Of a DNA stretch of 64,000 bases, positions 7,809 to 23,941 are shown in pieces. Within the stretch, counting starts at the first letter, position 1. Every line of letters starts with the position of its first letter. Source of the stretch: Armatimonadota bacterium (GTDB lineage Bacteria; Armatimonadota; SYMT01); NCBI GenBank assembly GCA_041690135.1, contig JAWLHY010000003.1:672001-736000 (forward strand). The letters run 5' to 3'. Made by a program: the position numbers and the translations under genes. Below the pieces are notes generated by a model. The model had not been told where the DNA came from. It saw only the letters and a program-made list of their open reading frames with translations, and did no database searches.

Positions 7809-9881
7809 ATGTCCTGCGAATCCTCCCCCTCGACCCAAGACCTGCGTGATGCTCTGCTCGAGGGCCTCCTCTTGATGACCCCGGAGGCCATTCTCAGCAC
7901 GGACCGCCATCAACGGATTCTTTCCTTCAATCCCGGCGCGGAGGCGATCTTCGGCTATCGAGCCCACGAAATCCTGGGGGAGTCCCTGGAACGTCTCATC
8001 CCACAGCGGTTCCGGGAATTCCACCGGGAGCATGTGCGGCGGTTCGGCGCGGGCGGAAAGCAAAGCCGGCCGATGGGCGAGCGCTCCGAAATCCTCGGTC
8101 TCCGCAAAAGTGGCGAGGAGTTTCCGGCCCAGGCGTCCATCTCTTACATCCCGCACAACGGGGGCATGTACACCGTAATCCTGCGGGACGTCAGCGAGCA
8201 ACGGAGAACACAGGCGGCGCTTGCCCAGGCGGAACACTTTGCCCGGGACGCCATCCGCTCCATCGCCGAGGGAATCTCCAACCTTACGGGAGAGCCCTTC
8301 TTCCGGGAGCTGGTCCAGCGGCTGTCCCGTGAGCTCCGGGTGGACTATGCCTTCATCGCAGAGTTGGATCGCGAAACCCAGAAGTCGGTGCGCACGGTCG
8401 CGGCGTGCGTGCGGGGCACCTTCGGTCCCACCTTCGACTATTCCCTCCCCGGAACTCCCTGCGAGGGCCTGCTGAGCGAGGACTGCTGTGTCTACCCGGC
8501 GGGGATTCGGCGGTACTTTCCGGGAGATGGCCTGCTTGCCCGGCTGCAAGTGGAGGCTTACCTCGGTGTGCCGCTCCGGGCGCAGGATGGAAGAGTCGTG
8601 GGGATCCTGGTGGCCATGCACTCTCAGCCCCTGGAGGAGACGGAGATCGCCGTCTCCACGCTGCGTATCTTCGCGTCCCGCGCGGCGGCCGAGTTGGAGC
8701 GGCTCCGCTCGGAGGCGGCTCTCCAGGAGAGCGAAGCGCAACTCCGCCAGATTCAGAAGATGGAAGCGATTGGGCGCCTGGCCGGCGGGATCGCGCATGA
8801 CTTCAACAACCTGCTCGCGGTGATCAACGGCTACAGCGAACTCGCTCTGCAACGGACCGACCTTCCGTCCGGACTGCCGGAGCTTCTCGGGGACATCCGG
8901 GCCGCCGGAGATCGTGCCGCCATCCTCACCCGGCAACTCCTGTCGTTCAGCCGGAGACAGGTCGGCCAGCCCGTTCTTGTCGATCTGAACGAATCGGTGA
9001 CGCACCTGGAGCGGATTCTGCGCCGTTTGATCGGCGAGGATATCGAACTGCGGATCCAGCCGGCGGCCGAGCCAGCGCCGGTGTGGGCGGACGCCGGGCA
9101 GCTCGCCCAGGTGGTCATGAACCTGGTGGTCAACGCGCGGGATGCGATGCCGCTGGGCGGCCTGATCGAGGTTTCGGTGGAGTTCTGTGAAACGCCGCCG
9201 CCCGATGCGCCACCCTCCCGTTCCTCGCCGCCCGGCTGGGCCAGGTTGACGGTGCGGGATACCGGCTGCGGGATCGATACGGAAACGCAGGGGCGTATTT
9301 TCGAGCCGTTCTTCACCACCAAGCGGGAAGGGGAGGGAACCGGGCTTGGGCTGGCCATTGTTTACGGGATCGTCCAGCGCGCCGGGGGAACCATCGAGCT
9401 GGAAAGCGAGGTGGGGAAGGGCACAACTTTCCGTGTCCTTCTGCCGCTCGGTGTCAGGGATGACTGCGTGCTTCCCGAGAAGCAGAGGGCCGAACCCGCT
9501 ACCGGTAGTGAGACGGTGCTGGTTCTGGAGGACGAGGAGCTCCTACGGAACCTGATCCGGGATGTGCTTCAGAGTGCGGGCTATCGGGTTTTGCTCGCCG
9601 AGAGTGCCGAGAAAGCACTGCGTGTTTGTGCCGAGGAAACGGGCCCCGTCCACCTCCTGGTGACCGATGTCGTCATGCCCGGCATGAACGGACGCGAGGC
9701 CGCCGAGCACCTTGCGGCGCTTCGACCGGGTATCCGGGTACTCTTTATCTCCGGGTACGCGGAAGATGAAGTGCTGCGCTATGGGATCTCCCTCCGCGAT
9801 GCCCTCTTCTTACCCAAGCCGTTTACCCCCGCGCAACTCACTCGCACCATTCGCGAGATACTCGACAATGGGCCGCGATGA
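7809..9881 (+). CDS. Hybrid sensor histidine kinase (PAS-GAF-HisKA-HATPase-REC)
   Basis: PAS (FNPGAEAIFGY), H-box AGGIAHDFNNLL, N-box NLVVNARDAM, G-boxes DTGCG, FEPFFTTK, GTGLGL; receiver LLVTDVVMPGMNG...KPF. Confidence 0.95.
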   Translation: MSCESSPSTQDLRDALLEGLLLMTPEAILSTDRHQRILSFNPGAEAIFGYRAHEILGESLERLIPQRFREFHREHVRRFGAGGKQSRPMGERSEILGLRKSGEEFPAQASISYIPHNGGMYTVILRDVSEQRRTQAALAQAEHFARDAIRSIAEGISNLTGEPFFRELVQRLSRELRVDYAFIAELDRETQKSVRTVAACVRGTFGPTFDYSLPGTPCEGLLSEDCCVYPAGIRRYFPGDGLLARLQVEAYLGVPLRAQDGRVVGILVAMHSQPLEETEIAVSTLRIFASRAAAELERLRSEAALQESEAQLRQIQKMEAIGRLAGGIAHDFNNLLAVINGYSELALQRTDLPSGLPELLGDIRAAGDRAAILTRQLLSFSRRQVGQPVLVDLNESVTHLERILRRLIGEDIELRIQPAAEPAPVWADAGQLAQVVMNLVVNARDAMPLGGLIEVSVEFCETPPPDAPPSRSSPPGWARLTVRDTGCGIDTETQGRIFEPFFTTKREGEGTGLGLAIVYGIVQRAGGTIELESEVGKGTTFRVLLPLGVRDDCVLPEKQRAEPATGSETVLVLEDEELLRNLIRDVLQSAGYRVLLAESAEKALRVCAEETGPVHLLVTDVVMPGMNGREAAEHLAALRPGIRVLFISGYAEDEVLRYGISLRDALFLPKPFTPAQLTRTIREILDNGPR

Positions 9882-10058
9882 TCTGGAGTGGGATGGCGCA
9901 CGCGTACATCAATCTGCGATGCGGATTGGCTCCTTCCGCTCTCCCGGGCGAGACACCGCGCGCCGAAGCTCAAATTTTTTTGCCTGAACCCAACAAAATG
10001 GGGGTCTGCAGGGATCTAAGCGGATGAACCTGCGGCGGGAGACCTTTACCGCGCTCGA

Positions 10059-10361
10059 GTGAACCCCCGTCCCGACGCAGTTCTTCAGGCGGCGATCGTG
10101 TTGGAACAGGCTACACAATCCAAGACTCGCGTCAGTGGTTACCAGCGTGGCGCCCACTTTGCCCTGGAGCCGGACGGCACCCCCGGTTGGGAAGAGATCA
10201 CCCTGGAACTGGAGCCACAGGTCCGTATCGAGCGGAGTGGTAGGGGACAGTTGTTGCTCTACCGCGGGTATCTCTCCTTCGGTATGGGTCTACCTACGGC
10301 ATTGAAGCTGGGGTGGTGCCGGGTAGTGGGAACCAAGGAGGGGGGTTGGGAGGGCGACTGA
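10059..10361 (+). CDS. Hypothetical protein
   Basis: 100-aa ORF with plausible composition in an otherwise empty interval; no motif recognised. Confidence 0.5.
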   Translation: MNPRPDAVLQAAIVLEQATQSKTRVSGYQRGAHFALEPDGTPGWEEITLELEPQVRIERSGRGQLLLYRGYLSFGMGLPTALKLGWCRVVGTKEGGWEGD

Positions 10362-10504
10362 TCTCACGTCTCCCGGTACCGTAGAGGGCTATCCCCAGGC
10401 CAAGGGACGATCGTCCGGGCGCTGGAGCCGTGGCGGGACGAACGTCCCGTTCACAGAAGGGGGTCTGCACCGAAAAGTGAATTAGAGGGTCCGGCGCCAC
10501 GGGT

Positions 10505-10834
10505 GTGTCCGGATCGCATGAGGTGCAGCAGATGATCCCACGGGGAGAGGTCCAGCGTTTCGCGCGTCGGCTGTTGAAGAGCCGGGAGTTCGCGCTCATT
10601 GGCGAGTTCGGCGCCGGCTACACGGAATTGCTGGACGGGTTCGAGACCGCCCAGGTCGAGGCCGCGGCCGACGTGCCGGGAGCGGCCGTTCTGGCCGCGG
10701 AATACCGGCTGGCGCTAGACATCTACTGCCAGGCCTTTGGCGTGCGGGAACTGCCGGAAGCGGCAGCGGAAACCCCACCCGTCCGGCGCCGCAAGTTACG
10801 ACGAGGCCCCTCCTGGCGCCTTCGAGGTAGATAG
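10505..10834 (+). CDS. Hypothetical protein
   Basis: 109-aa ORF with plausible helical composition; start uncertain; no motif recognised. Confidence 0.5.
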   Translation: MSGSHEVQQMIPRGEVQRFARRLLKSREFALIGEFGAGYTELLDGFETAQVEAAADVPGAAVLAAEYRLALDIYCQAFGVRELPEAAAETPPVRRRKLRRGPSWRLRGR

Positions 10835-11055
10835 TAGCGCCCGCCCAGCGCCACAGTGGGAATGATTCTGGAAAGAGGTGGCGGCCGCTGCCCCAGTACA
10901 GGCAAAAGTAGGGCGGGATCTCCGCCCCCGCGGGGCATTGGGCTAGCACCCGTCGTGCCGTTCCATTCCGCAGCCTGTAAAGCTGATCCCGTTCGGCCAA
11001 ACCGTGGGAGCTTCCAGACCGAAACCTCACCGTTTTGCCTGCCCGGATCGGCCCT

Positions 11056-11655
11056 TCAGGAGCCGTTGGCCTCGCGCCACCAACACTGCGCGGTTTGGAA
11101 GAACTCCTCGGCCGCTTCCGGAGAGGGAAAGGCCGACTTGGGAATGAGCGTGGTGGCGCCGGCCCGCCAGTAGATGAGGAGGTGCGAGCGGGTATTGCCC
11201 ACGTCCTGCACGTGTTGCCACACGATACGCGTGGTGCCCACGCCTTCCGTCCAGCCGCCCACCAGTTCGGGGGTAATCCAGGCGGTGTGCGGCCCGCGGA
11301 AGCGGGGGTTCTTCCGGGCCTGCCAGCGCACCAGCAGCGGCAGCATGAAGGCGATCCCGAAGATGACCGCCGCCATCAGCGCGATGCCCGCGGAAGGCCC
11401 GATGGTCAGGCCCAGGCCCACGTTCATCATCATGAAGAAAAAGAAGGCGAGCGGCATGCGCCGCCGGACGACCGGGTGACCGAGAAAGCCGTAGAAGTAA
11501 CCGGCCAGCGCGTCCCCCTCGTCCAGTTCGAACCGGACTTTCAGCCGTTCTTCCCCGTCAGCTTCCTCCGCGGCAGGCTCTGTCGCGGCGTCCGGCTCCC
11601 CCTGCCTCGCTTCCATCTCCGCCGAGCGTTCTTCCCTCAACTCTTCATCCGTCAT
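11056..11655 (-). CDS. YcxB-like membrane protein
   Basis: Two TM segments followed by 'W..V.DV....HLLIY.....LIPKSAFPSPEAAEEF', typical of YcxB-like proteins. ATG at 11655 chosen over the upstream GTG. Confidence 0.7.
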   Translation of the reverse strand: MTDEELREERSAEMEARQGEPDAATEPAAEEADGEERLKVRFELDEGDALAGYFYGFLGHPVVRRRMPLAFFFFMMMNVGLGLTIGPSAGIALMAAVIFGIAFMLPLLVRWQARKNPRFRGPHTAWITPELVGGWTEGVGTTRIVWQHVQDVGNTRSHLLIYWRAGATTLIPKSAFPSPEAAEEFFQTAQCWWREANGS

Positions 11656-11786
11656 CCCAATCCTCCAACCGGCGCGGGCGAGGCTCCGGTGAAGTGCCGG
11701 CCGCGGGGACACCTACTATCTCATCACAAGGAGTCGTTTTCGGCCGGTCGGAATGGCCGCGCGGGTAAACGGACGGGTGCGTATAA

Positions 11787-12086
11787 TTAGCCGGCGCGCC
11801 GATGCGCCAGACCGCCGGAGACAAGTGTCTTCAGGAACTCATCCACGTCGACACGCGCGGTCTCCGGTGACACGTCGTATTCCGCGCAGAGGGCGTTCAC
11901 CATTTCCGGGAGCGTGGGACGTTCGGCCAGCAAGGTCCAGAGGGTGGAACCGACCTCGTCGAGGGTGTAGATCGCTTCCAGGTCGCCGACCCGACCGCGT
12001 ACCGGAACGAGGATCGTCTCGCCGCCGATCCGGCGCATCACCAGGTTGGGATCCCGTTCGTAGCGGGCTTCTTCATTCATTGCCAT
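11787..12086 (-). CDS. PqqD-family RiPP recognition element (RRE)
   Basis: RRIGGETILVPV...IYTLDEVGSTLWTLL...LCAEYDVSPETARVDVDEFL is the canonical stand-alone PqqD pattern; overlaps the upstream NTase stop. Confidence 0.92.
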   Translation of the reverse strand: MAMNEEARYERDPNLVMRRIGGETILVPVRGRVGDLEAIYTLDEVGSTLWTLLAERPTLPEMVNALCAEYDVSPETARVDVDEFLKTLVSGGLAHRRAG

Positions 12087-13308
12087 TCCCCGTTGCTTCT
12101 CTCTTCCGCCGCATGGCCGCTTTGAAACTCCCCACGACGCCGTGCGCACGTCGCCGGAAAAAATGAGCTCGCCACGGGCCGATCGGCTCGGTGGGGGCCA
12201 GGGCGTAACGCCAGCGGAGGTGCGCCTCCGAAGGAAACGCCTGCCGGATCAGGTAGCGACCGCGTGCCGCCCATCCCCGGATCTCCCCCACCGCCGCCAG
12301 CCGGTCGCGACACGTCTCCCAGGCGCGCGCCTCTCGCCGTGCGGAGCCGGTTGCCAGGCGTTCCCACGCCCACTCCGGGGCTTGCTGCGGCCAATCGGGT
12401 CCGCTGACGCCGAGGTATGCCGCGAGCACCCTGCACACCTGGCCCAACTCTCGCTCGATACCCCAGCGCTCCGCGCACTGCCGGAGCTCGTTCCACGCCA
12501 CGGTTTCCGGGTGGCGCCGGGCTAAAAGCGCCAGATCGACCAGCCAGGCCAGCGGCGCGAAATCCTCTTCCAGGTGACGCACGTAGTGGACCGCTCCGTG
12601 GAGAAAGAAGTGCCGCCAGGCCAACCGGTGGACGGGTATTCCGTCCAGTTCGTCGGGCGTCGCCGCTCCCCACAGGTCCCGTAGAGCGGCCTCGCGGCGC
12701 CCGCGCGACCCGAGCACCTGGAGGTGCAGTTCCACCGGCAGGGACCCGGTGCGTACATAAGGGGGGAAGTGGGTCCGCCGCGCCTTGACCTGCTCCTCTT
12801 CAGGGGAGGTGCTGGAGGCCAGGGGCGCATAGCCCAGGTCGAGCAGCGTGCGGCACGCGGCTTCGGCCTGTTCCGGCCGTACGAGAAGATCGAGATCTCC
12901 CAGAGCCCGCTGCTCCAGCTCCGGGTAGAGCCACGTCAGCGCGGCCGCTCCCTTGAGTGGGAGCACCCGGATGCCGGCCTCCGCGGCGGTGCTGGCGATC
13001 TCGCGGGCCTGTTCCAGAGCCCGAAGGCTGCGGAGGTACTGCCCCTGCACGCAGCGGGTCCAGTCCGGAGGAAGCGAAGCTCCCAGGGCTTCCGCCGATA
13101 CCGCTCCCAACAGCCGGTGGTGCAGCACGGCGTGCCACAGCGCCACGGTGGGGGCGGTCGTCGGCAGGCCGGGAGAGGACGGCTCACCCGCCAGAGAGCG
13201 GCAGAGCCGGAGGAGGACGGCCGGAACACCGTCCTCCTCCGGCTCGTTCGCCGGTGTGTTTGTGTCAGCGCGGTCGTGACCGCCGCGGGTTTCCCTTCGC
13301 AGGTTCAC
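12073..13308 (-). CDS. Nucleotidyltransferase family protein (RiPP/lasso-cluster-associated type)
   Basis: LPLKGAA...YP....R.LGDLDLLV, VELH and WLVDL motifs of the uncharacterised nucleotidyltransferase family found in lasso and PqqD clusters. Confidence 0.88.
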   Translation of the reverse strand: MNLRRETRGGHDRADTNTPANEPEEDGVPAVLLRLCRSLAGEPSSPGLPTTAPTVALWHAVLHHRLLGAVSAEALGASLPPDWTRCVQGQYLRSLRALEQAREIASTAAEAGIRVLPLKGAAALTWLYPELEQRALGDLDLLVRPEQAEAACRTLLDLGYAPLASSTSPEEEQVKARRTHFPPYVRTGSLPVELHLQVLGSRGRREAALRDLWGAATPDELDGIPVHRLAWRHFFLHGAVHYVRHLEEDFAPLAWLVDLALLARRHPETVAWNELRQCAERWGIERELGQVCRVLAAYLGVSGPDWPQQAPEWAWERLATGSARREARAWETCRDRLAAVGEIRGWAARGRYLIRQAFPSEAHLRWRYALAPTEPIGPWRAHFFRRRAHGVVGSFKAAMRRKREATGNGNE

Positions 13309-13315
13309 GAGGCTG

Positions 13316-16300
13316 TTAGCGGATCCGCATGCTGGGGTCTCCGAAGAGCACCCAGGTCTTCCGCACGTCGGGATGTCCGGCGTCGTGCTTGGCGGCCAGC
13401 GCGGCCTCGCCCAGCGTGTACTGCCCCGCGAACAGATAACCGTAGAACTGCAGGTTCAGCTCCATCTGCGCCGTCGGCAGGCTGGTTCCGGAGGAGGTGA
13501 ACGCCGCCACGGCCCCGCCGTTCGGCGTGTTCACCAGCGCCTCGGCCAGGCAGTCCCGGAACACGTCGTTGAACAACCCGTTGAGGCAGGTCATGCTCAC
13601 GAATAGCGGCAGGCGGGTCCCGTTCCCCAGGCGGCCGGCATCCCCCGCGGTGAGCACGTCGCCGCGCCAGCCGTCGTCCGTGCCGTGGCCCAGGTAGTTC
13701 ACGATGAGCTGACCGCCGCCGAGGGCGGACAGCAACTGCGGACGGGTCGCACCGCCGCTCTCGCCACGCAGGATCTGCTGCGAGGAGAGCAGGTTGGGCA
13801 GGTAGGAAGAGAGGATCCCCACCCCCTCGGTGAAGCTGTAGCCGGCATCGTCGGCATCGCCCACCAGAAGCACCTGCTTCCGCCAGGCTTCCGCCTTGTT
13901 CCCCTGGTCGTAGCCCACGATCTTGCTGATCACCGCCGTGGCGGCCGCCGCCGTGCGGACCGGCAGTCGGCCGGTGGGGAGGTTGCCGACCCCGTCACCG
14001 TCCCAGTCCGTGAACCAGTCGTCCGAGGCCGTCTCGATCGTGCTGGTCGCCACGGTCATGGTCGGCAGGTAGTCGTGGTACCCCCGGCCCAGGTAGTTTC
14101 GCGGGTCGTAGCTCGCGTCGCCCACCAGCAGGACGAACCGGGGCGCTTTGCTCCAGTTCTGCTGGGTGAACGCCAGGAAGTCCCGGAGAGCGTGCGGGCT
14201 CTTATGGCCGAACGCGAACTCGTCGTAGACGTCTTCCACGTCCACCACCGCCACCGCCAGCCCCTGCGCCTGCCGCAGGTTCTTCAGTGCCGTGACGCTG
14301 CTCCGGAAGTCTCGGTGTGCCAGGATCACCAGATCGGCGCCGTTGCTCCCCTGGGTGAGGGCGGAAGGCTCATTCGCGGTCACCGCCACGGGGGCCAGCA
14401 GTTGGTCCTTCCGGAACGCCACGAGCACCCGGGTCTGGCCCAGGCCGCCGGGCACGGTGGCGGTAAAGGTGTACTCCCGGCGCTTCTTCCGGAACTTGCC
14501 CAGGACTTCGATGGGCGACTCGGGGTTCGTGACGTCGAAGACCCGCACCGTGGAGCGGGTGAAGCCGCCCACGCTGATCGCCTTTCCGCCCGGCGCCGTA
14601 AACACCAGGCTGTCGCCGCTGGCCTGGTAGGCACGGGTGTAGGTGAGGCGGAGGGTATCGACCAGGCTCACGTCCGAGGCGCCGCCCAGGGCCTGCAGGG
14701 TGACCGTGTTGGCGCCATCCTGCAGCAGGGCCGCCGCGACCGGGAAGAGCGCGGAGCGGTTCTCGTGGCCGTCGAAGGCAACCTCTCCCACCACCGTGCC
14801 GTTCAGGCGGACCTGGACGCGATGGTCCTCCGTGCCGGCGAGAGCGGTCACGCCCTGCAGCACCACCTGAAGCTGGGCGGGGTCGCTGGCGCCCGCCGCC
14901 ACGCCGGAGAGGGTGAGGGTCTGGTTCAGGGACTGGGAGTTCACCACGGGGCCGAAGAAGTTGTCGGTTTCACCGTTCAACAGCGCGGCGAACCGGATGG
15001 TGCGATCCTTCCGCTCGACCGTGGAGCGGAAGCTGGCCGGCACCTCGCCGGTGCCGGACCCGCGCACCTGCGGCACCCGGCCGCCCGCACCGGAGCCGGA
15101 GACCAGCCAGTAGGTGCGCACGTCCGTAAAGGCGGTGTCGAGGCCGCGCCCGTAGAACTCCACTGTATCGCGGGACTGGAAGCGGCCGTCCCGCTCGCCC
15201 ATCACCAGGAGCGGCACCTCCACCCCGTCCGCGAACAACCGGAAGGTGCGGGGATCGACGCGCTTGTTCACCCCGGCGGCCAGGAGCTGCTTGTAAGTCA
15301 GCTTGACCCAACCCTCGCCGCGGATCTGCACCTTCACCGCGGCCCCACCGGCGAGGCCCTTCTGCACGGAAGCCTGCCGGGTGCGCGGCACGCGCCGCCC
15401 GGGCACGGTTGCCAGCCGGATGGGTCCTTCGTAAACGCCCGGCTCCTCTCCCGCCTCCTGGGGCAGTTCACCCAGGGTCGGGGAAGCCTGGAGCGCCTGC
15501 CGAGAGGCCGGACCGTCCGTCACATAGAAGGGGCCATGCAGCGTGCGGTGACCGTTGAGGTCCACGTCTTCCAGGAAATACTGGCCGCCGGGCTTGGGGT
15601 CCCACCACGTATAGGAACGGCCGGCTTGCAGGGCCACCCCCCGGGCCAGGAGCGCGGAGCCGGCAATCAAGTTCCGGTTCACGCGGGTATCGGGGCCCAC
15701 GTCTTCACGGTAGAGGTTGAACCCGAGGTTATCCACCTCGTGGCCCGTCTTCCACTCCAGGGCCACGCCGCCCTGGGTGCGGGAGGCGCGGAACTCCTGC
15801 AGCCGGATGGCGCTGGGGGAGAAAGTGTAGGCCGGGTCCTGCGGGCCGAACTGCACCGGCGGGATATCCGCCAGGCCGAACACGCCGTAGATGTCCGGCC
15901 CCAGGTCGCCGGTCTGGGCCGAGATCCGCACGCCGACGATCGCCTGCACCGGGGTGACGTTGAAAAGGTCGCTAAGGTCGACCCCCATGGCCCCCAGTTG
16001 TTGGCCGCTGCCGATCTCGAAGGTGTCGATGTAGATGCCGGTGGCGTAGGAGGGCGTGCCGTTGGTATCTACCAGAAGCTGCACATCGCCCAGGATCGGG
16101 TTATCGAGCGTGCCGCCGGCAAGAATCGCCTCCACGTGCAGCATGGAGTTGCGGCCGCGCTCCAGGAACAGCAGCTCGGGAACGGCGTCCAGCGCCGCGG
16201 GGTTGTTGTCGCTGACGGTCTTGGTGAAATACAGGTCGTAGGCGAACCTGTCGGTCTCGCCGTCCGTCCCTTCCACCAGCGAGTAGCTGTTGTAGGCCGA

Positions 16301-16807
16301 CCGGATCGCCAGGTCCTGGTAGGGATAGGTGGTGGAGTCGTTCGCGGCCGTGCCCCCTTCCGCAACGAGCCCGGCCTTCACGAACGGGTTAGCGTTGCCG
16401 TCGTCATCCGTATCCTGATCCCCGTACTCCGCGTTCACATTGATCTCGGTGCCCGCATACACGCCGGTACGCCGGACCACCGCCTGCTGGGCATGGATTC
16501 CCTCGTTGGTCGCGTCGTCGCTGGTGACGGTGAAGACGGTGGCTCCAAAGGTGACCGTGCTCAGATAGACGTCGTCGACAAAGGGAAGTCCGGAAGTCCC
16601 GTCGCGGCCCAGCGCGGTGTTCCGGCTGCCGGAGGGCACAGTGACGGTCAGCCCCGTCGGGGCAAAGGGGGCCGCCTGGACGGGGGAACTCCCCAGCGTC
16701 AAGAGGGCGATGGAGGCCAGGGGGGCAAAGAGCGACACGGCCCGGGAAACTCCCGCGGTCTGTCTTCGGAGGAAGCGTGCGATCATTCCAGTGCGTACCT
16801 CATTCAT
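13316..16807 (-). CDS. Secreted C25 (gingipain/PorU-like) cysteine peptidase with N-terminal surface domain
   Basis: Signal peptide ending VQA. C25 motifs DVYDEFAFG, FVLLVGDASYDP, GRLPV, catalytic VNYLGHG (His) and SMTCLNG (Cys), terminal LFGDP. Confidence 0.9.
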   Translation of the reverse strand: MNEVRTGMIARFLRRQTAGVSRAVSLFAPLASIALLTLGSSPVQAAPFAPTGLTVTVPSGSRNTALGRDGTSGLPFVDDVYLSTVTFGATVFTVTSDDATNEGIHAQQAVVRRTGVYAGTEINVNAEYGDQDTDDDGNANPFVKAGLVAEGGTAANDSTTYPYQDLAIRSAYNSYSLVEGTDGETDRFAYDLYFTKTVSDNNPAALDAVPELLFLERGRNSMLHVEAILAGGTLDNPILGDVQLLVDTNGTPSYATGIYIDTFEIGSGQQLGAMGVDLSDLFNVTPVQAIVGVRISAQTGDLGPDIYGVFGLADIPPVQFGPQDPAYTFSPSAIRLQEFRASRTQGGVALEWKTGHEVDNLGFNLYREDVGPDTRVNRNLIAGSALLARGVALQAGRSYTWWDPKPGGQYFLEDVDLNGHRTLHGPFYVTDGPASRQALQASPTLGELPQEAGEEPGVYEGPIRLATVPGRRVPRTRQASVQKGLAGGAAVKVQIRGEGWVKLTYKQLLAAGVNKRVDPRTFRLFADGVEVPLLVMGERDGRFQSRDTVEFYGRGLDTAFTDVRTYWLVSGSGAGGRVPQVRGSGTGEVPASFRSTVERKDRTIRFAALLNGETDNFFGPVVNSQSLNQTLTLSGVAAGASDPAQLQVVLQGVTALAGTEDHRVQVRLNGTVVGEVAFDGHENRSALFPVAAALLQDGANTVTLQALGGASDVSLVDTLRLTYTRAYQASGDSLVFTAPGGKAISVGGFTRSTVRVFDVTNPESPIEVLGKFRKKRREYTFTATVPGGLGQTRVLVAFRKDQLLAPVAVTANEPSALTQGSNGADLVILAHRDFRSSVTALKNLRQAQGLAVAVVDVEDVYDEFAFGHKSPHALRDFLAFTQQNWSKAPRFVLLVGDASYDPRNYLGRGYHDYLPTMTVATSTIETASDDWFTDWDGDGVGNLPTGRLPVRTAAAATAVISKIVGYDQGNKAEAWRKQVLLVGDADDAGYSFTEGVGILSSYLPNLLSSQQILRGESGGATRPQLLSALGGGQLIVNYLGHGTDDGWRGDVLTAGDAGRLGNGTRLPLFVSMTCLNGLFNDVFRDCLAEALVNTPNGGAVAAFTSSGTSLPTAQMELNLQFYGYLFAGQYTLGEAALAAKHDAGHPDVRKTWVLFGDPSMRIR

Positions 16808-17305
16808 TTACTCGGCCGTGGCGAAACGGTCGGCCCGCTGCGGGCTGCCGACGCGGGCCAGGAGGGTGTTTCCGAACCGCCGGAGCGGCCGGAGGAGTGC
16901 CCGGAGCGAGCGAGGACACCGCGCCCGGATCACCCGCAAGTAGTTGGGGGAAGTCAGATCGAGCGGTTCGCCGTCCCGCTCAACGGCCGTAACCCGGCCC
17001 AGGACCGCCGAGGCGGGCACCGGAGCGTCCGGCTGGTCGGTGGCATCCCCGTGGAAGAGATAGCCGGTCTCCCCGGAGGGCAGCCTCACCCGCCCCACCA
17101 GGCGATGGGCCGTCAGCCAGTCCCGGCCCTGAAAGAGGAAGATTCGGCCGATCTGCGCCTCTTCGAGCGCTACCGGTTGAACCAGTAGGACCTCGCCGGA
17201 GCGGATCGCCGGCTCCATGCTGCCGCCTTCGGCCCGGAAGCGGATCTCGTAGCCGGCGCGGAGCAGTTCCGTGCTGATGCGGTCGAAACGAAGCAGTTGC
17301 TGCAT
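16808..17305 (-). CDS. S24/S26-family peptidase (signal-peptidase-like, soluble)
   Basis: FRAEGGSMEPAI (catalytic Ser), AHRLV (His), GD...D.PV....VLGRV; abuts both neighbours with no gap. Confidence 0.85.
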   Translation of the reverse strand: MQQLLRFDRISTELLRAGYEIRFRAEGGSMEPAIRSGEVLLVQPVALEEAQIGRIFLFQGRDWLTAHRLVGRVRLPSGETGYLFHGDATDQPDAPVPASAVLGRVTAVERDGEPLDLTSPNYLRVIRARCPRSLRALLRPLRRFGNTLLARVGSPQRADRFATAE

Positions 17306-18247
17306 CTAGGCGGCTCCATGCCAGGCCCGGACCGCCGCGATGGCGGAGTGGTCCGGAACGAAATGAAAATCGAGCGCGGGGACGGTCTCTGCCAGGTCCT
17401 GCAAGGAGTCCAGGGTGAGTTGCAAGCCCTCCGGGTCATAGAACGGAGGGAAGCTCGCCGCGAACAGCCGGGCCACCGCTTCCGTCACGGGCAGCAGCCG
17501 GAGCGTGTTGCCCGGCCCGTGGTGAAGGAAGAAGAGCCCATCCAACCGGGCGCTTCCCGGTTCGGCGGTGCCGGCGTCGCTCTGCCAGGGCGTTCCGTAG
17601 ACCCGCAACTCCTCTCCCCGCCTCCGGACGACCACCCGATCGTCCGCCAGGACGGTGGCGCCGCTCTCGCGAGTCCACAGCCGGGCCAGCGTGCTCTTCC
17701 CCTGGCCGGAGGCGCCCACGAACAACAGGCCCGCCCCGCATGTCAATCGCACCGCACACCCGTGCAGCTCCACTCCGCCCCGCCGGGCCAGCAGGCGCAG
17801 CAGCAGGAGCTCATCCAACGGGGACTGGAGGGGATGAACCGGTTCATCCGGAGGAAAGGCACTCCGGCGCAGGAGCACCTCTCCCCGGCAACCGTCCCGG
17901 TCCAGCCGCGCGACCGCGAAGGGCCGGCTGCCGTGCCGGGGCGCGGCTAGCCGGAACTCCAGGTCTTCTCCCCGGTCGTAGAGCTTCCACACGGCGCCGG
18001 AGTCGAAGCGGAGCGGCAGGTCCGGAAGGGGCGTGTCCGTTCCCCAGCAGGCCGTGATCCGGCAGTCGGGCCGGGTGCTCTCCTTCGGGGTCAACTGGAA
18101 CTTCCGGGCCGTGCCGGTGGCAGCGGGCGCCAGATCGGGGGAGCCCGAGCGGACTGCCACGACCAGACCGCCGAGACCGAGAGTAAACCCGGGCGTGGAG
18201 GAACCCGCGCCCGGTACTGGAGGAGCTGCCATCATACCGCTGGACAC
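17306..18247 (-). CDS. HPr-kinase-like P-loop protein (ScmC / lasso-peptide kinase-like)
   Basis: LHGCAV...LFVGASGQGKSTL (Walker A), VLADDR and YGTPW motifs. Confidence 0.85.
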   Translation of the reverse strand: MSSGMMAAPPVPGAGSSTPGFTLGLGGLVVAVRSGSPDLAPAATGTARKFQLTPKESTRPDCRITACWGTDTPLPDLPLRFDSGAVWKLYDRGEDLEFRLAAPRHGSRPFAVARLDRDGCRGEVLLRRSAFPPDEPVHPLQSPLDELLLLRLLARRGGVELHGCAVRLTCGAGLLFVGASGQGKSTLARLWTRESGATVLADDRVVVRRRGEELRVYGTPWQSDAGTAEPGSARLDGLFFLHHGPGNTLRLLPVTEAVARLFAASFPPFYDPEGLQLTLDSLQDLAETVPALDFHFVPDHSAIAAVRAWHGAA

Positions 18248-18259
18248 GGGTGGGATGGA

Positions 18260-18439
18260 TCAGGAGCCGATGGTCAGGCACGCGGCCGGGGTCAGGCAGT
18301 CCACCTGCACCGGGCCGGAAACGCCGACGTTGCGGCAGGCGCCCAGCACCGCCTGCTCGGGCCGCAGCTCGACTCGCTGGATCTGGGGCTTCCGGTAGAC
18401 CTTTTTGGAGCCCGCGGCCCCGGTGGTTTCGTGTTCCAT
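18260..18439 (-). CDS. Putative RiPP precursor peptide, 59 aa (absent from the supplied ORF track)
   Basis: Manual translation: MEHETTGAAGSKKVYRKPQIQRVELRPEQAVLGACRNVGVSGPVQVDCLTPAACLTIGS*. YxxPxI RRE-binding leader motif, three Cys in the core, C-terminal Ser; lies between the rSAM and kinase genes in the same orientation. Confidence 0.88.
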   Translation of the reverse strand: MEHETTGAAGSKKVYRKPQIQRVELRPEQAVLGACRNVGVSGPVQVDCLTPAACLTIGS

Positions 18440-18472
18440 CTTGATTGTTTCTGTTTCTTTACGGAGTGGGGT

Positions 18473-19690
18473 TCAGCTCGCCTGGAGCACGGGAAGCGCT
18501 ACCCAGGGTCGCGTTTCCGCCTGCTCGACGCGGGAATGGAGCCGGCGCGCCTCCTCGGTGACTTGCGGGTACCGGGAGCCGCCTGCGCAGTAGTCGCAGT
18601 CGCCGTGCGGAGGCACCTCCGCCCCCAGGGCATGGGCGCGGAGGTGGGCGACGTGACAGTGAAAATCGACGGGTTCCTCTTTGTCGCCGTGGTTCAGCTC
18701 GCCGTTGGCGGGGCACATCCCGCACAGGAGCTTCAGGCGGCAGTGGGTGCACTTCGTCTCCCGGGTCCGCCGGGCGTCGCGCACCCCGCGCAGGAAACTC
18801 TCCCACCCCTCCCGGAAGCTGCCCCGGCGCAGGTCGTAGTGGTCCTGGTGCGAGATTACGCAGGCGCTCATCCGCCCATAGGGGTCCACGGCGAAGGAGC
18901 TCACCCCCGCCCCGCAGCTATAGACCTCCTCGGCGTGCACCGTCACCGGGAGCGGCTCGCCGATCCGCGCCGCCGTGTCCCGCCAGCCGGCCCGCCGGAC
19001 CGGGTCCTCCAGGTCCAGCTCCACCGCGTCTTCCGGCGTGAGGCGGACGGCCAGCGGACTGCTGGAGCAGTCGATCCGCGGGTTGAGCAGCGCGTCGAAC
19101 TTGAACTCCACGCCCCGGGCCTTGGCGAACTGCTTCATGGCGGCCAGCTCGTGGCGGTTCTGACGGGTGACCGTGGTCTTCAACCGAAGCGGCAAGTTCC
19201 GCTCCAGCAGCAGGTCGATGCCGCGGAGGCAGCGATCGTAGGAGCCGGGAACACCCGTCACGGCCTCGTACACCTCCCGCGTGGCCCCGTAGAGGGTGAT
19301 CTCCATGCGGAAGGGCGGCCATTCCGCAAGGGTGTCCGCAATCCGCGGCGTGATCAGGGTGCCGTTGGTGAAGAGGGTGATGAAGAAGCCGTGCTGCTTG
19401 GCGAGGATGTGGATATCCAGGAAATCCGGCCGCGCGAAGATCTCTCCCCCGGTCAACAGCAGCCAGAGGGTGCCGGCCTCCGCCATCTCCGCCATCAAGC
19501 GCGCGTACTCGGCCGTGGAGAGTTCGCGCTCGCGCGCCGCGGCATCCGCCATGGGGAGATTGTTGTAGCACATCCGGCATTCGAGGGGACACCGCAGCGT
19601 CACCTCCAGCGTCCCGCTCACCGGGATCCTTCCGGGCTCCACCTGGGACTTGAGCCGGTGGCCCCAGTCCATGTAACCAAGCTGCTCCAT
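18473..19690 (-). CDS. Radical SAM/SPASM-domain peptide maturase
   Basis: CPLECRMC (CxxxCxxC), LTGGE; SPASM cysteines CGAG...DPYG...AC, CTHC...LCGMCP, HC, plus an extra C-terminal CDYC. Confidence 0.95.
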   Translation of the reverse strand: MEQLGYMDWGHRLKSQVEPGRIPVSGTLEVTLRCPLECRMCYNNLPMADAAARERELSTAEYARLMAEMAEAGTLWLLLTGGEIFARPDFLDIHILAKQHGFFITLFTNGTLITPRIADTLAEWPPFRMEITLYGATREVYEAVTGVPGSYDRCLRGIDLLLERNLPLRLKTTVTRQNRHELAAMKQFAKARGVEFKFDALLNPRIDCSSSPLAVRLTPEDAVELDLEDPVRRAGWRDTAARIGEPLPVTVHAEEVYSCGAGVSSFAVDPYGRMSACVISHQDHYDLRRGSFREGWESFLRGVRDARRTRETKCTHCRLKLLCGMCPANGELNHGDKEEPVDFHCHVAHLRAHALGAEVPPHGDCDYCAGGSRYPQVTEEARRLHSRVEQAETRPWVALPVLQAS

Positions 19691-20272
19691 GGGGTACTTC
19701 TATACGTTCGGCAGGGGAGGGCCCACGATCCGGGAGAGAACGGCCCAATTGCGGCGACGCCGGAGCGGACCCGGCGCTACAGGGCCCGCCCGACTTCGGT
19801 GTCTCAGCCCCAAATCATCTTCGGGATCGAGCTTGAGAACCCGCATGAACTACACAGGTAATCTTCTTTTCGAGGGGCATACTCCTGCATTAGGGATTAA
19901 AATCCCCAATTTCTATCAGTAGACAGGGACAAAAATCCTTGTTCGCCAGGCAAGCAAATAGCTGGAGGAGGTAGGGAACGGGTTAGCGGGAGTGAACCCC
20001 AGCGGTTGGAACCGTCAGATAGCGGGGGAGAGTACCGGAATACGGGACAAGCCTCTGCTCCGCATAGAAGCTGGTTGGTAGTCGGGAAAGAGAGGAAATG
20101 ATGTTCCATTCCAGCCTGGAGCTTAGCCGCGACGCCGGGGCGAAGCACGCCCGGTTTGGGTTCTGGAGCGATAACCAGGACACGCTTCGCCTGTCGCAGC
20201 GTTTTCACGCGCAGGTCGTCCGCACGCCGGTCCTGCTCGCGCGCGCCCTCTCCTCAACGGACGCGACCGCCC

Positions 20273-20860
20273 ATGCTTCCTCCTGAGCGGCAAGCCGAGA
20301 TCATCGTGGTCACCGGACTTCCGCGCTCCGGGACCTCCCTGGCCATGCAGATGCTGGCTGCCGGCGGATTACCCCTGCTCACGGACAACGTCCGGCCGCC
20401 GGACGACGACAACCCCCGCGGCTACTGCGAGTATGCTCCCGTGCTGCGGACCGCCAGGGATGCCTCCTGGGTCTCGCAGGCGGAAGGCCGGGCCGTTAAG
20501 GTGGTCCATGCGTTGATCGCCCACCTTCCGGCGGGCCACCGCTACCGGGTCATCCTGATGGACCGCCCGCTCCCGCAGGTTCTCGCGTCCCAGCGGAAGA
20601 TGCTTGCCCTCCTCGGCCGGCCGGGGGCCTCCTTAACGGAGGAACAGCTGGCCGCCGTGTTCGCGCGCCAGTTGGAGGAGATCGTGAACTGGATGGAGCA
20701 GTCGCCCGAGATTTCCTGGTTCCGCCTTCGCTACCCGGAGGTCGTTGCCGACCCGGCCTGGGCCGCGACGGCCCTCAACCGGTTCCTGGGGGGAGGCCTC
20801 AACGAGAAAGCGATGGCCTCCGTGGTGGACCCGTCGTTGTACCGGCAGAAGCATCCTTGA
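20273..20860 (+). CDS. Sulfotransferase-family protein
   Basis: PAPS-binding loop VVTGLPRSGTS, DDDNPRGY.E, R....VLASQ..M, VDPSLYRQ. ATG at 20273 is in frame with the track ORF. Confidence 0.85.
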   Translation: MLPPERQAEIIVVTGLPRSGTSLAMQMLAAGGLPLLTDNVRPPDDDNPRGYCEYAPVLRTARDASWVSQAEGRAVKVVHALIAHLPAGHRYRVILMDRPLPQVLASQRKMLALLGRPGASLTEEQLAAVFARQLEEIVNWMEQSPEISWFRLRYPEVVADPAWAATALNRFLGGGLNEKAMASVVDPSLYRQKHP

Positions 20861-20883: not shown

Positions 20884-21640
20884 GCCTGAATGGCGGCAAG
20901 TGCAGTTCGGCGACTCTGGATACTGGGAGCGAGACCGCCACGGGGTGAACCGTAGAGCGGTTGAGGCATGCCCGGAGTCCCGCTGCAAGGCGGGCCTTCG
21001 CGAGCGGGGGGTCCGGATCCCATGATGGAGAGCGGTGTGCTCCTGGTACCAGCGGGAGCCGTGGTAGACGAGGACGGGCACCCGCAATAACGGTTGCGGG
21101 AGGTCTGGATCCCGTGATGGAGAGCAGTGTGCTCCTGGTATCGGCGGGAACTAGGGTAGACGGTGACGGGCGCCCGTATCAGAAGTCGCGAAGGCCCGCC
21201 TCGCAGCGGGACTCCGTCAAGCACCATGAAAGGTTACTGATAACTGTGCCGGGCTTCTAATGCCCAACTCGCCAACCCGGACTCGAAGCTTTGAAGATTG
21301 ACCAAAGCTTCAGCGCCCCTGTGCTGAGCCTGGAAAGTTGCAAGAGCCGTTTGGCGCTTCCAGGTGCTGGAGGCGGGGCGGGCATGGGTTGTACCGTAGT
21401 ATGCACGGGCCATGCCCGGAGTCCCGCTGCAAGGCGGGTCTTCGCGAGCGGGGGATCCGGATCCCATGATGCAGAGCGGAGCGCGCCCAGGTACCAGCGG
21501 GAGCCGTAGTGGACGATGACGGGCACCCGTACCAGAAGTCGCGAAGGCCCGCCTCGCAGCGGGACTCCGTCAAGCACCATGAGCGGTGTGCGATCACTGT
21601 GCCAGGCTTCTAACGCTCAACTCGCTAATCCGGACTCGAA
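20884..21640. repeat. Two diverged tandem copies (about 20884-21287 and 21328-21640) of a non-coding element with 31-bp inverted repeats
   Basis: IR pairs 20973-21003/21186-21216 and 21417-21447/21539-21569 (CGGAGTCCCGCTGCAAGGCGGG(C/T)CTTCGCGA). Shared downstream tail TCAAGCACCATGA...CCGGACTCGAA. Confidence 0.85.
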
Positions 21641-21710: not shown

Positions 21711-23186
21711 TTATTCCTTGACGGAGCCATAACCTTGCTGGCTAGCCTGCCAGCCGGAGAGGCGCTTGAGGAGGGGGCGCAGTGCGGCGCGGTACATGGG
21801 GCTGTCGGGGTGGCGGCCCGCGAACTCGGCCAGCATCCGGTTCTCGCGGCGGAGCTCGGCGGCGGCCTCGGCTTGCAGGCGAGTGCGCTCCGCCTCGTCC
21901 ACGCCGGCCCAGAACTGGTCGAACTCCGCTTCCGCCCGGGCCTGCTGCTCCTCCCGGGTGGCCTGTTCCGCTTCCCGGGCTCGAACGCGCTCAGTACGGG
22001 CCTGGGCCTCCTGGGCCTGCATCCAGCCGGGAGGCGCCGACCATCCCTCCCGGATCGATTTCACCAGCACCCCGCCCGGGTTCTTCGCGTCCCGGTAGGG
22101 GAGGTAATCCAGTTGCCGGTCGCACTCCTCCGGGACCGACCGCGCAAGGTCGAGGGCATCCTTGCGCGAGACCCCCTGCTCCATCAGGCGACGGCTGCGC
22201 GACTGTATCTCTTCCGGCACCGAAGGCGGCGCAGGACTGGGGGCCGAAGCGGAGGCCGAAGGCGGTGCCGGAGCGGGGGATGGAGTGGCAGCCGGGGTTT
22301 TCTCCACCACGAGATCCGGCAAGGTAAGGCGGCCGTCGCGGGTGGGGAAGCGATAGATGACCATCAACTCGCCCGGCTGCGTCCGCATCTCCGCATACTC
22401 CGTGGCGAGCAGGAAGCCCCGGTCGATGAGCTCCTGGTGCGCGGGATCGAGCTTCCGCTTGATCTGGGAGGGGTAGTAGTTGCGGGAGAGCCCCAGGTGC
22501 TCGAACGCCAGCTTGCGCAGGCCGATGCGGTAGAGCGGCTTGCCGTCGTACCGTTTCGCGTCCAGGTAGCGGTAGAGCGCCTTGGCGATGGAGCTTTCCA
22601 GCGAAAGGAAGAGGTGCACGTCCAGGCTCTTCAGGTAGCCCGCCTGCATGTTCCGGTAGAGATAGGGGCTCCAGGTGATCCAGCTCGGAAAGAGCGCCGG
22701 CTCGTCGGTCCCCGCCTCGCGGCTGCCGGTGATGTCGAACTCCGCGATGATGCCGATCGATCGCTCCCGTTCCCACCGGCGCTTCTGGGCATCGAAGAAG
22801 GCGTTCTTGGCCGAGATGGAGATCCCGCGCAGGCGGTGCAGCCCCGTTACCAGCCGCTCGTAGCTGCGGCCGTGCTGGTCCCACCCCAAACGTTCGATCA
22901 ACTCGTAGCGCGAAAAGGTGACCCGCTCCGGGAAGGACTGCTCCCGCGTCAACTCCATCAGCACCACGTAGAGATCCACGTCCGCCGAGGTGGGCAGTCC
23001 GTACTTGGGGCTACCCTGAACGACCCATTCCTTCTCCCCGTCTCGAAACTCGATGACCAGGGGGCTTTCCTTGGACCCACGGCTCGCCAGGACGGCAAAC
23101 GGAAATTCCGTCAGGTTCAGTTCATCGCGACCCGTGCGAGGGGCTACAGGGGCAAGGTCCAGGGGAAGCTCATTCTGGCCCGGCAT
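21711..23186 (-). CDS. repA: Plasmid-type replication initiator protein A (RPA/RepA family)
   Basis: GRDELNLTEFPF, GLPT..D.D.Y..L, FSRYELI..LGW...G..Y, GYLKSLD, AKALYRYLDAKRY, KRKL.PA..EL...GFL; C-terminal NPGGVLVKSIREGW. Confidence 0.85.
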   Translation of the reverse strand: MPGQNELPLDLAPVAPRTGRDELNLTEFPFAVLASRGSKESPLVIEFRDGEKEWVVQGSPKYGLPTSADVDLYVVLMELTREQSFPERVTFSRYELIERLGWDQHGRSYERLVTGLHRLRGISISAKNAFFDAQKRRWERERSIGIIAEFDITGSREAGTDEPALFPSWITWSPYLYRNMQAGYLKSLDVHLFLSLESSIAKALYRYLDAKRYDGKPLYRIGLRKLAFEHLGLSRNYYPSQIKRKLDPAHQELIDRGFLLATEYAEMRTQPGELMVIYRFPTRDGRLTLPDLVVEKTPAATPSPAPAPPSASASAPSPAPPSVPEEIQSRSRRLMEQGVSRKDALDLARSVPEECDRQLDYLPYRDAKNPGGVLVKSIREGWSAPPGWMQAQEAQARTERVRAREAEQATREEQQARAEAEFDQFWAGVDEAERTRLQAEAAAELRRENRMLAEFAGRHPDSPMYRAALRPLLKRLSGWQASQQGYGSVKE

Positions 23187-23326
23187 ACAACAACAACTCC
23201 TCCAGCCGCTGCTCCGAACGTTTGACCGGCGGGCAGTCGCGTAGTTCCAGTAGTTCCAAACGGGTGTTCTAAGTATAGTTCCAGAGCCCGAGAATGCCCT
23301 GATTCGGCCGTAGATTCCGAATGCGG

Positions 23327-23941
23327 CTTGCCTCATCTTCCGGTACGGCTTGCCTCACCGTCCGGTACCCCTTGCTCCGTTTTCCGGTACCCCTTGTCCC
23401 GCATTCCGGGGGCCCTTGCCCCGGCGTCCGGGGATTTCTTGCTTCGCCGTCCGGTACCCGCTCGGGCGCTGCCGGTGCAAGGGAATCCTGCTTCGCCGTC
23501 CGATACGGGGTGTCGTTTTGGGTCAGGCGCCGGAAGGGGCGCAGACCCCGAGTACCGCGGCCATCAGGCACGGGCTCTTGCCCCGTGGTCCGGTACGGTT
23601 AAGAGTGGGGTAGCCGGCTTTGCTGCGTGAGGAACCCGATCCCAGGCACGAAACGAACGGAAAAGGGATTGCGCGTCTCGTGCCTGGGGGCTCGATTCCG
23701 GGTTTGTCTCGCGGTCCGGTACGGGGCGCGGAGGCGGAGCTTGCCCCGAGTTCCGGTAGGCCGGCGGAATCGCTCGAATCCATCCTTGCTCCGGTGTCCG
23801 GTACATGGCCCATCCGGCGCTCCGGATTCAGCCCTTGCCCCGGATTCCGGTACTTCCGTCGATCCGTTCCGATTCACTCCTTGCCCCGTTGTCCGTGATT
23901 CACCGCCAGGAAAGGCGTTCTTGCCCCGTTTTCCGGTACGG
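23327..23941. repeat. Iteron-like array upstream of repA: about 14 copies of 22-bp CTTGCYYCGNNDTCCGGTACSS
   Basis: Copies start at 23327, 23349, 23371, 23393, 23415, 23438 (spacing 22,22,22,22,23), then 23487, 23577, 23703, 23740, 23785, 23834, 23880 and 23920, all in the same orientation. Confidence 0.85.

Follow-up and report, generated by a model that had tools for sequence, protein, structure and literature searches.

A seven-gene operon in a 64,000 nt stretch of DNA from an Armatimonadota bacterium (assembly GCA_041690135.1, contig JAWLHY010000003.1, positions 672,001 to 736,000; this whole stretch is hereafter the window) is predicted, with a probability of about 0.7, to make a peptide made by the ribosome and modified after translation (RiPP) through a radical S-adenosylmethionine (rSAM) relative of the tailoring pathway that acts on linear polyphosphorylated peptides (LPP) and phosphorylated lasso peptides. 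The operon would most likely cross-link, phosphorylate and trim a small peptide bearing three cysteines. It encodes an rSAM/SPASM maturase next to a 59-residue precursor with a YxxP leader motif, together with a PqqD-type RiPP recognition element (RRE), an HPr-kinase-like protein, a signal-peptidase-like protein, a nucleotidyltransferase (NTase)-fold protein and a large secreted C25 protein, and the same gene set recurs in 80 related loci, so the arrangement is not a chance one. The closest characterised system is the LPP pathway of Bacillota, whose clusters (lppA-K-B-S-D-N) encode the precursor LppA, the HprK-like kinase LppK, the RRE protein LppB, the SipW-like peptidase LppS, the MsbA-like LppD and the NTase LppN (Popov et al., Nat Commun 2026, PMC13381572). 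As that pathway has neither an rSAM enzyme nor a C25 protein, the window appears to hold an uncharacterised radical-SAM variant of it.

The operon and its genes

The seven co-oriented genes form a real operon on the minus strand. They are listed below from the rSAM gene onwards, followed by the divergent neighbour.

18473..19690, minus strand: rSAM/SPASM peptide maturase, 405 residues (PF04055, 75.9 bits)
18260..18439, minus strand: precursor peptide, 59 residues (translated 59-codon open reading frame (ORF) between the rSAM and kinase genes)
17306..18247, minus strand: HPr-kinase-like peptide kinase, 313 residues (Hpr_kinase_C 24.1 bits and TIGR04355 32.2 bits, each below cut-off)
16808..17305, minus strand: soluble SipW/archaeal-type signal-peptidase-I-like protein (S24/S26-like), 165 residues (PF00717 19 bits and TIGR02228 40.5 bits against a cut-off of 51.85, each below cut-off)
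13316..16807, minus strand: secreted C25 protein, 1163 residues, with a signal peptide, an XDP2-like N-terminal domain and a PorU/gingipain-like module (PF01364, 272.5 bits)
12073..13308, minus strand: PF14907 (NTP_transf_5) NTase-fold protein, 411 residues (137.4 bits)
11787..12149, minus strand: PqqD-type RRE protein (PF05402 62.3 bits; lasso PqqD model NF033536 38 bits against a cut-off of 80)
20156..20860, plus strand: sulfotransferase, divergent neighbour (PF13469, 40.5 bits)

By these coordinates the intergenic gaps from the rSAM gene through the NTase gene are 33, 12, 0, 0 and 7 nt, and the PqqD gene overlaps the NTase gene. This overlap is 77 nt if translation begins at the GTG, and 14 or 8 nt if it begins at one of the internal ATG codons at 12086 and 12080, one of which is probably the true start. 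The sulfotransferase gene is divergent and lies 465 nt from the start of the rSAM gene. Periodicity in third-position GC content (GC3) backs the larger operon genes and the sulfotransferase gene, the peptide and PqqD ORFs being outside that listing. A scan for sigma-70 promoters and terminators around the operon gave no usable signal, and neither tRNAs nor Rfam matches turned up in the window. The domain scan took in 29 ORFs of the window, smaller ones being outside it; it showed no ABC transporter domain and likewise no lasso cyclase (asparagine-synthetase-like) or B2 transglutaminase-like protease domain, the search for the latter two being confined to the window.

A first-pass annotation of the window had described seven co-oriented genes in this order with tight spacing, which the gaps of 0-33 nt or overlap on the minus strand bear out. 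It read the locus as an operon of RiPP type in which lasso-type tailoring genes accompany a precursor, an RRE and an rSAM/SPASM enzyme while a lasso cyclase is absent; this is likewise supported, the precursor being conserved, and its remark that no ABC exporter is visible holds across the scanned ORFs. Taken as a whole that reading was largely right and is partly supported, with individual claims returned to below.

Conservation and distribution of the gene set

The rSAM enzyme has thousands of relatives, at 57-64% identity: of the 8000 candidate proteins scored, 5833 had E<=0.001. In a pattern scan of one-genome-per-species contigs, made with an alignment, at least 589 of the 598 candidate stretches encode an rSAM relative. 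With relatives in at least 589 species-level genomes, this is a very large group, dominant in soil Acidobacteriota, which are rarely cultured. The best 80 related loci were analysed; in 30 of them the sequence downstream of the rSAM match is shorter than 9 kb. While the rSAM gene is present in all 80 by construction of the set, tblastn matches were found to the kinase in 77, to PqqD in 75 (almost always directly upstream of the rSAM gene), to the precursor peptide, as a homologous ORF, in 74, to the S24 peptidase in 63, to the C25 protein in 41 and to the NTase in 11, and none of the 80 matched the sulfotransferase, the YcxB-like neighbour or the RPA neighbour. A profile built from 18 NTase sequences raised the number of loci with an NTase-like ORF to 25. 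Genes were labelled by best hit, as single-linkage clustering of flank ORFs fused the kinase, S24, C25 and NTase groups through fused ORF calls. Comparison of homologous loci had been put forward in the first-pass annotation as a check on its reading, and that reading stands on this point, since the gene set and the peptide are conserved among them.

The commonest gene order is PqqD-rSAM-peptide-kinase-S24-giant C25 protein. The window departs from its relatives in that PqqD lies at the far end after the NTase gene rather than before the rSAM gene, in the placement of the NTase gene inside the operon, and in the XDP2 domain of its C25 protein. By record title, many hosts are Acidobacteriota, with others among Armatimonadetes (L001), Nitrospirae (L007), Myxococcales (L015, L054), Binatia (L025, L032) and a delta proteobacterium (L047).

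The cassette is single-copy in the 9.1 Mb genome, with one copy of the precursor found, and was detected in 2 of 40 sampled relatives. Beside the operon are a gene for replication initiator protein A (RPA; PF10134, 56.2 bits; window 21711-23336) and, directly next to that gene, a repeat block (window 20884-21640), the latter composed of direct repeats of ~154-160 nt, 77-84% identical, together with four copies of a 31-nt inverted-repeat arm. The repeat block looks like the iterons of an integrated plasmid-like element, and such an element at the locus is possible. The single copy, the detection in few relatives, and the adjoining replication-initiator gene and repeat block form a pattern that suggests horizontal acquisition of the cassette. 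Residence of the locus on a plasmid, an idea arising from the RPA gene, was rejected because the window lies inside a contig of ~1 Mb in the 9.1 Mb assembly.

Second, divergent cassettes occur a few kb from the main one in loci L019 (147-2756) and L031 (18914-21120), with S24, kinase and rSAM matches at 29-35% identity, and in L073 (5845-7579), with kinase and rSAM matches only at 34-36% identity, from which it follows that paralogous systems co-reside. In Thermoanaerobaculia-labelled loci, the cassette has as its neighbour a gene for a transporter of the AI-2E family (PF01594; the L028 gene, 8473-9564, scores 70.2 bits); the corresponding ORF cluster has 14 members, one per locus (L028 and 13 others, e.g. 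L030, L038, L040, L041 and L044), of which one was checked against Pfam. This transporter is a candidate exporter in that one clade, and none was seen in the window. Exopolysaccharide-type genes, encoding a Wza-like exporter, a Bac_transf sugar transferase and a GT2 protein, lie directly after the cassette in L067 (12738-15665) and L004 (20583-21191) and recall the capsule-locus context reported for LPP.

The precursor peptide

The window peptide consists of a leader with the YxxP motif, an LRPEQAVLG junction, and a core of the form C-x12-C-x5-C-x5 ending in GS. It was compared with the precursors of 74 loci, giving 75 in total. Exactly three Cys follow the junction in 72 of these, and the spacing of the window peptide is the commonest (39/75, window included). 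The C-terminal ends are GS in 71, GT in 2, TS in 1 and LS in 1, so that Ser is the last residue in 73. The first core cysteine (Cys1) is followed by Lys in 74 precursors and by Arg solely in that of the window. In an alignment of 24 rows, Y15, P18, L25, A30, V31, G33, C35, G42, C48, C54 and G58 are invariant (24/24); the consensus reads KKPYxKPxxxxVxLRPEEAVLGxCK, with a mean column identity of 51% across phyla. There was no Pfam or NCBIfam model fitting the window peptide, nor a Pfam model fitting the 24 aligned precursors. The PqqD protein very probably binds the YxxP motif of the leader.

This conservation bears on what kind of molecule the product would be. Somewhat less than even odds are given to a product with a conserved physiological role, for instance as a signal, as a peptide resembling a cofactor, or as a constituent of the surface or matrix connected with exopolysaccharide and biofilm biology, rather than to an antibiotic-type natural product. 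A core and junction so similar across phyla would be in keeping with such a role, as would the exopolysaccharide-type neighbours of some loci (the Wza-like exporter, sugar transferase and GT2 protein), the exosortase-associated XDP2 domain of the window C25 protein, and the location of LPP and paeninodin clusters in capsule loci, for which a role in biofilm has been raised by the authors (PMC13381572). The patchy distribution among the sampled relatives points the other way, as this would be expected for accessory or conflict genes.

The radical SAM enzyme and its possible chemistry

The rSAM/SPASM enzyme can be expected with good confidence to modify the core of the precursor, the peptide being its substrate. 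Its CX3CX2C motif (C34/C38/C41) is invariant in 20 of 20 aligned homologues, as is a seven-Cys SPASM pattern (C259, C277, C314, C317, C323, C326 and C345), while Pfam gives no SPASM match for the protein. The best NCBIfam matches are far below their cut-offs (AhbD, 115 vs 500; MftC, 100 vs 265), and the nearest solved relatives, PqqE and SkfB, are similar over the core domain only. The window enzyme (3' end at 18473-18600) ends in ...LPVLQAS, without the Cys-rich C-terminal tail: a tail with at least two Cys (consensus GGCxSC) is present in 74 of 77 homologues, the other exceptions being L031 and L073.

Thioether cross-links made from the three conserved cysteines are the most likely outcome of the reaction, at roughly even odds. 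Nothing in the core is more conserved than its three Cys with their nearly fixed spacing, and thioether formation is common among SPASM enzymes whose substrates have Cys-rich cores. A smaller but appreciable probability attaches to an enzyme that makes no thioethers, and that would instead introduce a C-C or C-O link, epimerise a residue, or oxidise a Cys or the conserved Lys/Arg after Cys1, with the cysteines forming disulfides or binding metal. This alternative finds support in the scores of the sacti- and ranthipeptide maturase models, all far under their cut-offs (StsB, 63.8 vs 625; PapB, 52.5 vs 340; AlbA, 46.1 vs 850), in the restriction of the PqqE and SkfB similarity to the core domain, and in the nearly constant Lys after Cys1, replaced in the window by Arg.

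Kinase, leader peptidase and nucleotidyltransferase

For the kinase, the alignment comprised 57 ORFs of 250-350 residues that bore the kinase label only, fused or odd calls being dropped; between 55 and 57 of these retain H162, the P-loop from G178 to T186 (K184 included) and D202. The protein aligns to L. casei HPrK/P across the His, the P-loop and ADD (E 0.022), and residues 156-313 of its AlphaFold2 model (pLDDT 90.5) match four HPrK/P structures with Z 10.2-10.6 and a root-mean-square deviation (rmsd) of 2.8-3.2 A over 119-122 residues. The whole model matches a phosphoenolpyruvate carboxykinase (PEPCK; Z 13.5, rmsd 5.9 A, 250 residues). Two more whole-model matches are to another PEPCK (Z 11.8) and to a subunit of respiratory complex I (Z 11.2), and unrelated P-loop proteins otherwise have Z <7. 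The conserved residues fit the His-Lys-Asp-Asp motif of lasso-tailoring kinases (PMC9266682).

On balance, the kinase would be expected to phosphorylate Ser, most likely the nearly invariant C-terminal Ser59 and possibly several times, as in paeninodin-type precursors. The C-terminal Ser is the preferred site because it is the only near-invariant Ser and mirrors the paeninodin rule, by which PadeK, ThcoK and PsmK add phosphate to the Ser at the precursor's C-terminus and the paeninodin-type kinase acts on a linear precursor (PMC9266682). LppK polyphosphorylates LppA, with as many as four phosphates at core residue Ser3, and did not accept Thr (PMC13381572).

Among 17 cleanly called peptidase ORFs, G27, S29, M30, P32, H67, R68, G86, D87 and D93 are invariant, and no N-terminal membrane helix is apparent by eye. 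This protein is likely to be the leader peptidase: a soluble, SipW-like Ser/His/Asp enzyme that would probably remove the leader with the help of the RRE, cutting after A30 or otherwise after G33. The cut would fall after A30 if the spacing of the LPP consensus holds, in which the last leader residue is 15 positions after the Tyr (YxxPxVLxHQxIxFET, cut after T). The small-residue rule for signal peptidases makes G33 the alternative. Its S29, H67 and D93 correspond to the catalytic S29, H68 and D93 of LppS, which is inactivated by S29A, H68A or D93A, cuts the leader only in the presence of LppB and prefers the phosphorylated precursor (PMC13381572). The earlier suggestion that the rSAM enzyme stands in for the B2 protease was dropped, as the SipW/S26-like peptidase most likely does the B2 job, for which LppS provides the precedent.

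The PF14907 protein might tentatively be assigned a role in decorating the phosphate. The first-pass annotation had counted it as part of the set, and the gene is indeed in the window, but with an NTase-like ORF in 25 of the 80 loci it is an accessory tailoring enzyme. The nucleotidylation of the product proposed there is unproven. No activity was seen for LppN (PMC13381572), and PsmN adds hexoses to phospho-Ser (PMC9266682).

The C25 protein and its link to the peptide

The large secreted protein falls within peptidase family C25 by its PF01364 score and its conserved His/Cys pair, H1041 and C1074, which in a phmmer alignment coincide with the catalytic pair of gingipain R (RgpB), taking the RgpB residue numbering as assumed, and which are invariant in 18 of 18 sequences. 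Matches in the PDB include PorU (6za2, E 6e-15) and RgpB (1cvr, E 3e-11). Similarity to PorU extends over ~680 residues, and the PorU equivalog model NF033707 scores 269.7 bits over model positions 2-732 of 1095, below its cut-off of 420, type IX secretion system genes not having been searched for. The XDP2 model NF041929 passes its cut-off of 75 with 85.8 bits over residues 78-309; the signal peptide was read by eye. In the C25 proteins of the related loci, the last ~830 residues match residues 330-1163 of the window protein, while the N-terminal part ranges from ~270 to 2200 residues and is built of variable surface-type modules (DUF11, LTD and DUF7948, with XDP2 in the window).

Of the 50 loci that extend 9 kb or more downstream, 37 contain a C25 gene, as a rule immediately behind that for the peptidase. 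In relative G003 the order is PqqD-rSAM-peptide-C25-C25, with the kinase and S24 genes on another contig. Relative G007 has an operon PqqD-rSAM-kinase-S24-NTase that is without a peptide gene, and the sole precursor gene found in its genome is directly upstream of a C25 paralogue on a contig other than that of the rSAM operon. The link between the C25 protein and the peptide system is real but not universal, and the secreted PorU/gingipain-like protein is probably a functional partner of the exported peptide, whether by processing, attachment or regulation.

Less likely is the alternative that the C25 protein, as a surface protease or adhesin serving a purpose of its own, is no more than often found next to the cassette, and that the RiPP pathway comprises PqqD, rSAM, peptide, kinase and peptidase alone. 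Several observations favour it. Thirteen of the 50 long loci have no C25 gene; full-length relatives occur in G001, G002, G006 and G038 (completeness 95, 80, 94 and 93%), in which neither rSAM nor peptide was found; the N-terminal modules are variable and of surface type; and the protein is secreted while the other enzymes appear cytoplasmic. Set against these are its presence in most long loci, mostly directly after the peptidase gene, the juxtaposition of C25 and precursor genes in G003 and G007, and its position inside the operon in the window, with gaps of 0 and 7 nt. A complex prediction for the C25 module (residues 330-1163) with the precursor scored 0.01 against a mark of 0.32 and counts neither way. 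At 7850-13117 of locus L088, from relative G006, a full-length relative of the window XDP2-C25 protein and a PF14907 NTase come after an ORF weakly resembling PqqD (23.9 bits), with a phage terminase large subunit adjoining and neither rSAM nor precursor found in that genome.

The stronger proposal that the modified peptide is a dedicated partner of the giant PorU-like surface protein, rather than a free antibiotic, is improbable at present. Under it, the C25 protein could cleave the cross-linked, phosphorylated and perhaps glycosylated peptide at the invariant basic residue after Cys1, could transfer the peptide sortase-fashion onto the cell surface or matrix, or could be a protease gated by the peptide. 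Any of these, if correct, would amount to a RiPP-protease system of a new kind, present in several phyla. The repeated association with a protease of the gingipain/PorU type could bring to light a use of modified peptides that is new.

Points that weigh against the proposed pathway

The proposed radical-SAM pathway has to be set against a number of observations that speak for caution. All of its steps derive from homology, conservation, and the LPP and lasso precedents, and for no member has a product been observed. Profile scores of the kinase and of the peptidase are under the curated cut-offs, the NTase is present in a minority of loci, and there is no conserved exporter across the loci nor one among the scanned window ORFs. 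The window rSAM could be impaired, as it lacks the Cys-rich tail. With regard to phosphorylation, the target of LppK is Ser3 and not a C-terminal Ser, and 2 of the 75 precursors end in Thr, which LppK did not accept. An antibiotic-type RiPP would not usually have a core so strongly conserved from phylum to phylum. The long loci without a C25 gene and the full-length C25 relatives in genomes with neither rSAM nor peptide found count on the same side.

The sulfotransferase and other features of the window

Membership of the sulfotransferase in the pathway, with a product that is sulfated too, is very improbable, as the adjacency of its divergent gene to the rSAM gene is outweighed by the lack of any tblastn relative in the 80 loci and of any seen in the loci of relatives G003 and G007. 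The enzyme is probably unrelated to the pathway, and its inclusion in the system by the first-pass annotation was not upheld. A presence of sulfotransferases in some paeninodin-type clusters was not confirmed, the term occurring zero times in the available texts of PMC9266682, PMC5067487 and PMC13381572.

Elsewhere in the window, two large ORFs with coding-type GC3 have no Pfam match at E<=0.001 (60317-63901, minus strand, 1194 residues; 46511-47488, minus strand, 325 residues). The product of a further gene (23967-24749, minus strand) combines an N-terminal methylation motif with a DUF1559 domain, a type that is abundant in Planctomycetota and allied phyla.

Comparison with known systems

Several known families share parts of this gene set. 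The SynChlorMet (Scm) and GeoRSP cassettes likewise combine an rSAM/SPASM enzyme, a PqqD-like protein and an HPrK-related protein, and the first-pass annotation had drawn the window towards the former. However, the scores are far below the SynChlorMet cut-offs (ScmC, 18.4 vs 125 bits; ScmD, 28.4 vs 100; ScmE, 80.6 vs 400; ScmF also below) and those of GeoRSP (rSAM, 50.4 vs 400 bits; PqqD, 18.9 vs 100) and of the HPrK-related model HprK_rel_B (32.2 vs 200), and on this sequence comparison the window represents a family different from both. As in sacti- and ranthipeptide systems (AlbA, SkfB, PapB, StsB), a SPASM rSAM enzyme with an RRE would act on a Cys-containing core, but none of the corresponding models reaches its cut-off and the RRE is here a separate protein. 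To our knowledge, kinase, S26-like peptidase and C25 partners are not known in those classes. The C25 protein shares its fold and catalytic His/Cys pair with PorU and the gingipains, and differs from them in its score below the PorU cut-off, its setting in a RiPP operon and its variable adhesin-like N-terminal part. The streptococcal WGK clusters (bioRxiv 10.1101/467670) were considered and set aside as a different family.

The phosphorylated lasso peptides (paeninodin, the ThcoA/SyanA products and pseudomycoidin) are closer, with an HPrK-like kinase acting on a linear precursor, a conserved C-terminal Ser as acceptor, an NTase-fold partner (PsmN), and a PqqD/B1 RRE that binds a [Y/W]xxP leader (PMC9266682). 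Without an Asn-synthetase-like cyclase or a B2 cysteine protease in the window, no lariat would be formed, and radical cross-linking is presumed to take its place.

The LPP pathway and the window have in common a discrete PqqD-type RRE, an HprK-like kinase, a PF14907-type NTase, the YxxP leader motif, a SipW/archaeal-type leader peptidase whose Ser/His/Asp triad has almost identical residue numbers in the two, and the lack of a lasso cyclase; LppN is presumed here to belong to PF14907. There are also marked differences. The window adds an rSAM/SPASM enzyme and a three-Cys core, usually with a giant C25 protein attached in its relatives, and LPP has neither; the LPP product is linear, with no other core-modifying enzyme, whereas here an rSAM gene adjoins the peptide gene. 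LPP clusters have an MsbA-like exporter (LppD), in contrast to the lack of an ABC domain among the scanned window ORFs. Beyond the YxxP motif, the precursors carry LRPEEAVLGxCK here and VLxHQxIxFETxxS in LPP (YxxPxVLxHQxIxFETxxS), and the candidate phosphorylation site is a C-terminal Ser here as against Ser3. The hosts are Acidobacteriota, Armatimonadota and others, as opposed to Bacillota, to which LPP and paeninodins are described as restricted (PMC13381572), and the available text of that paper contains no occurrence of radical SAM, rSAM, SPASM, C25 or Acidobacteri. Literature searches, which covered few subscription journals, found no paper joining an HprK-type kinase, a RiPP and an rSAM enzyme.

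The claim that the pathway is uncharacterised, made in the first-pass annotation, thus holds in part: the module of kinase, RRE, peptidase and NTase matches LPP and has been characterised as of 2026 (PMC13381572), and it is the rSAM-plus-C25 version alone that is unstudied. These results suggest that the module of SipW-like leader peptidase and HprK kinase extends beyond Bacillota, and that it is joined here to radical SAM cross-linking, a pairing with Ser (poly)phosphorylation that did not emerge from the literature searches.

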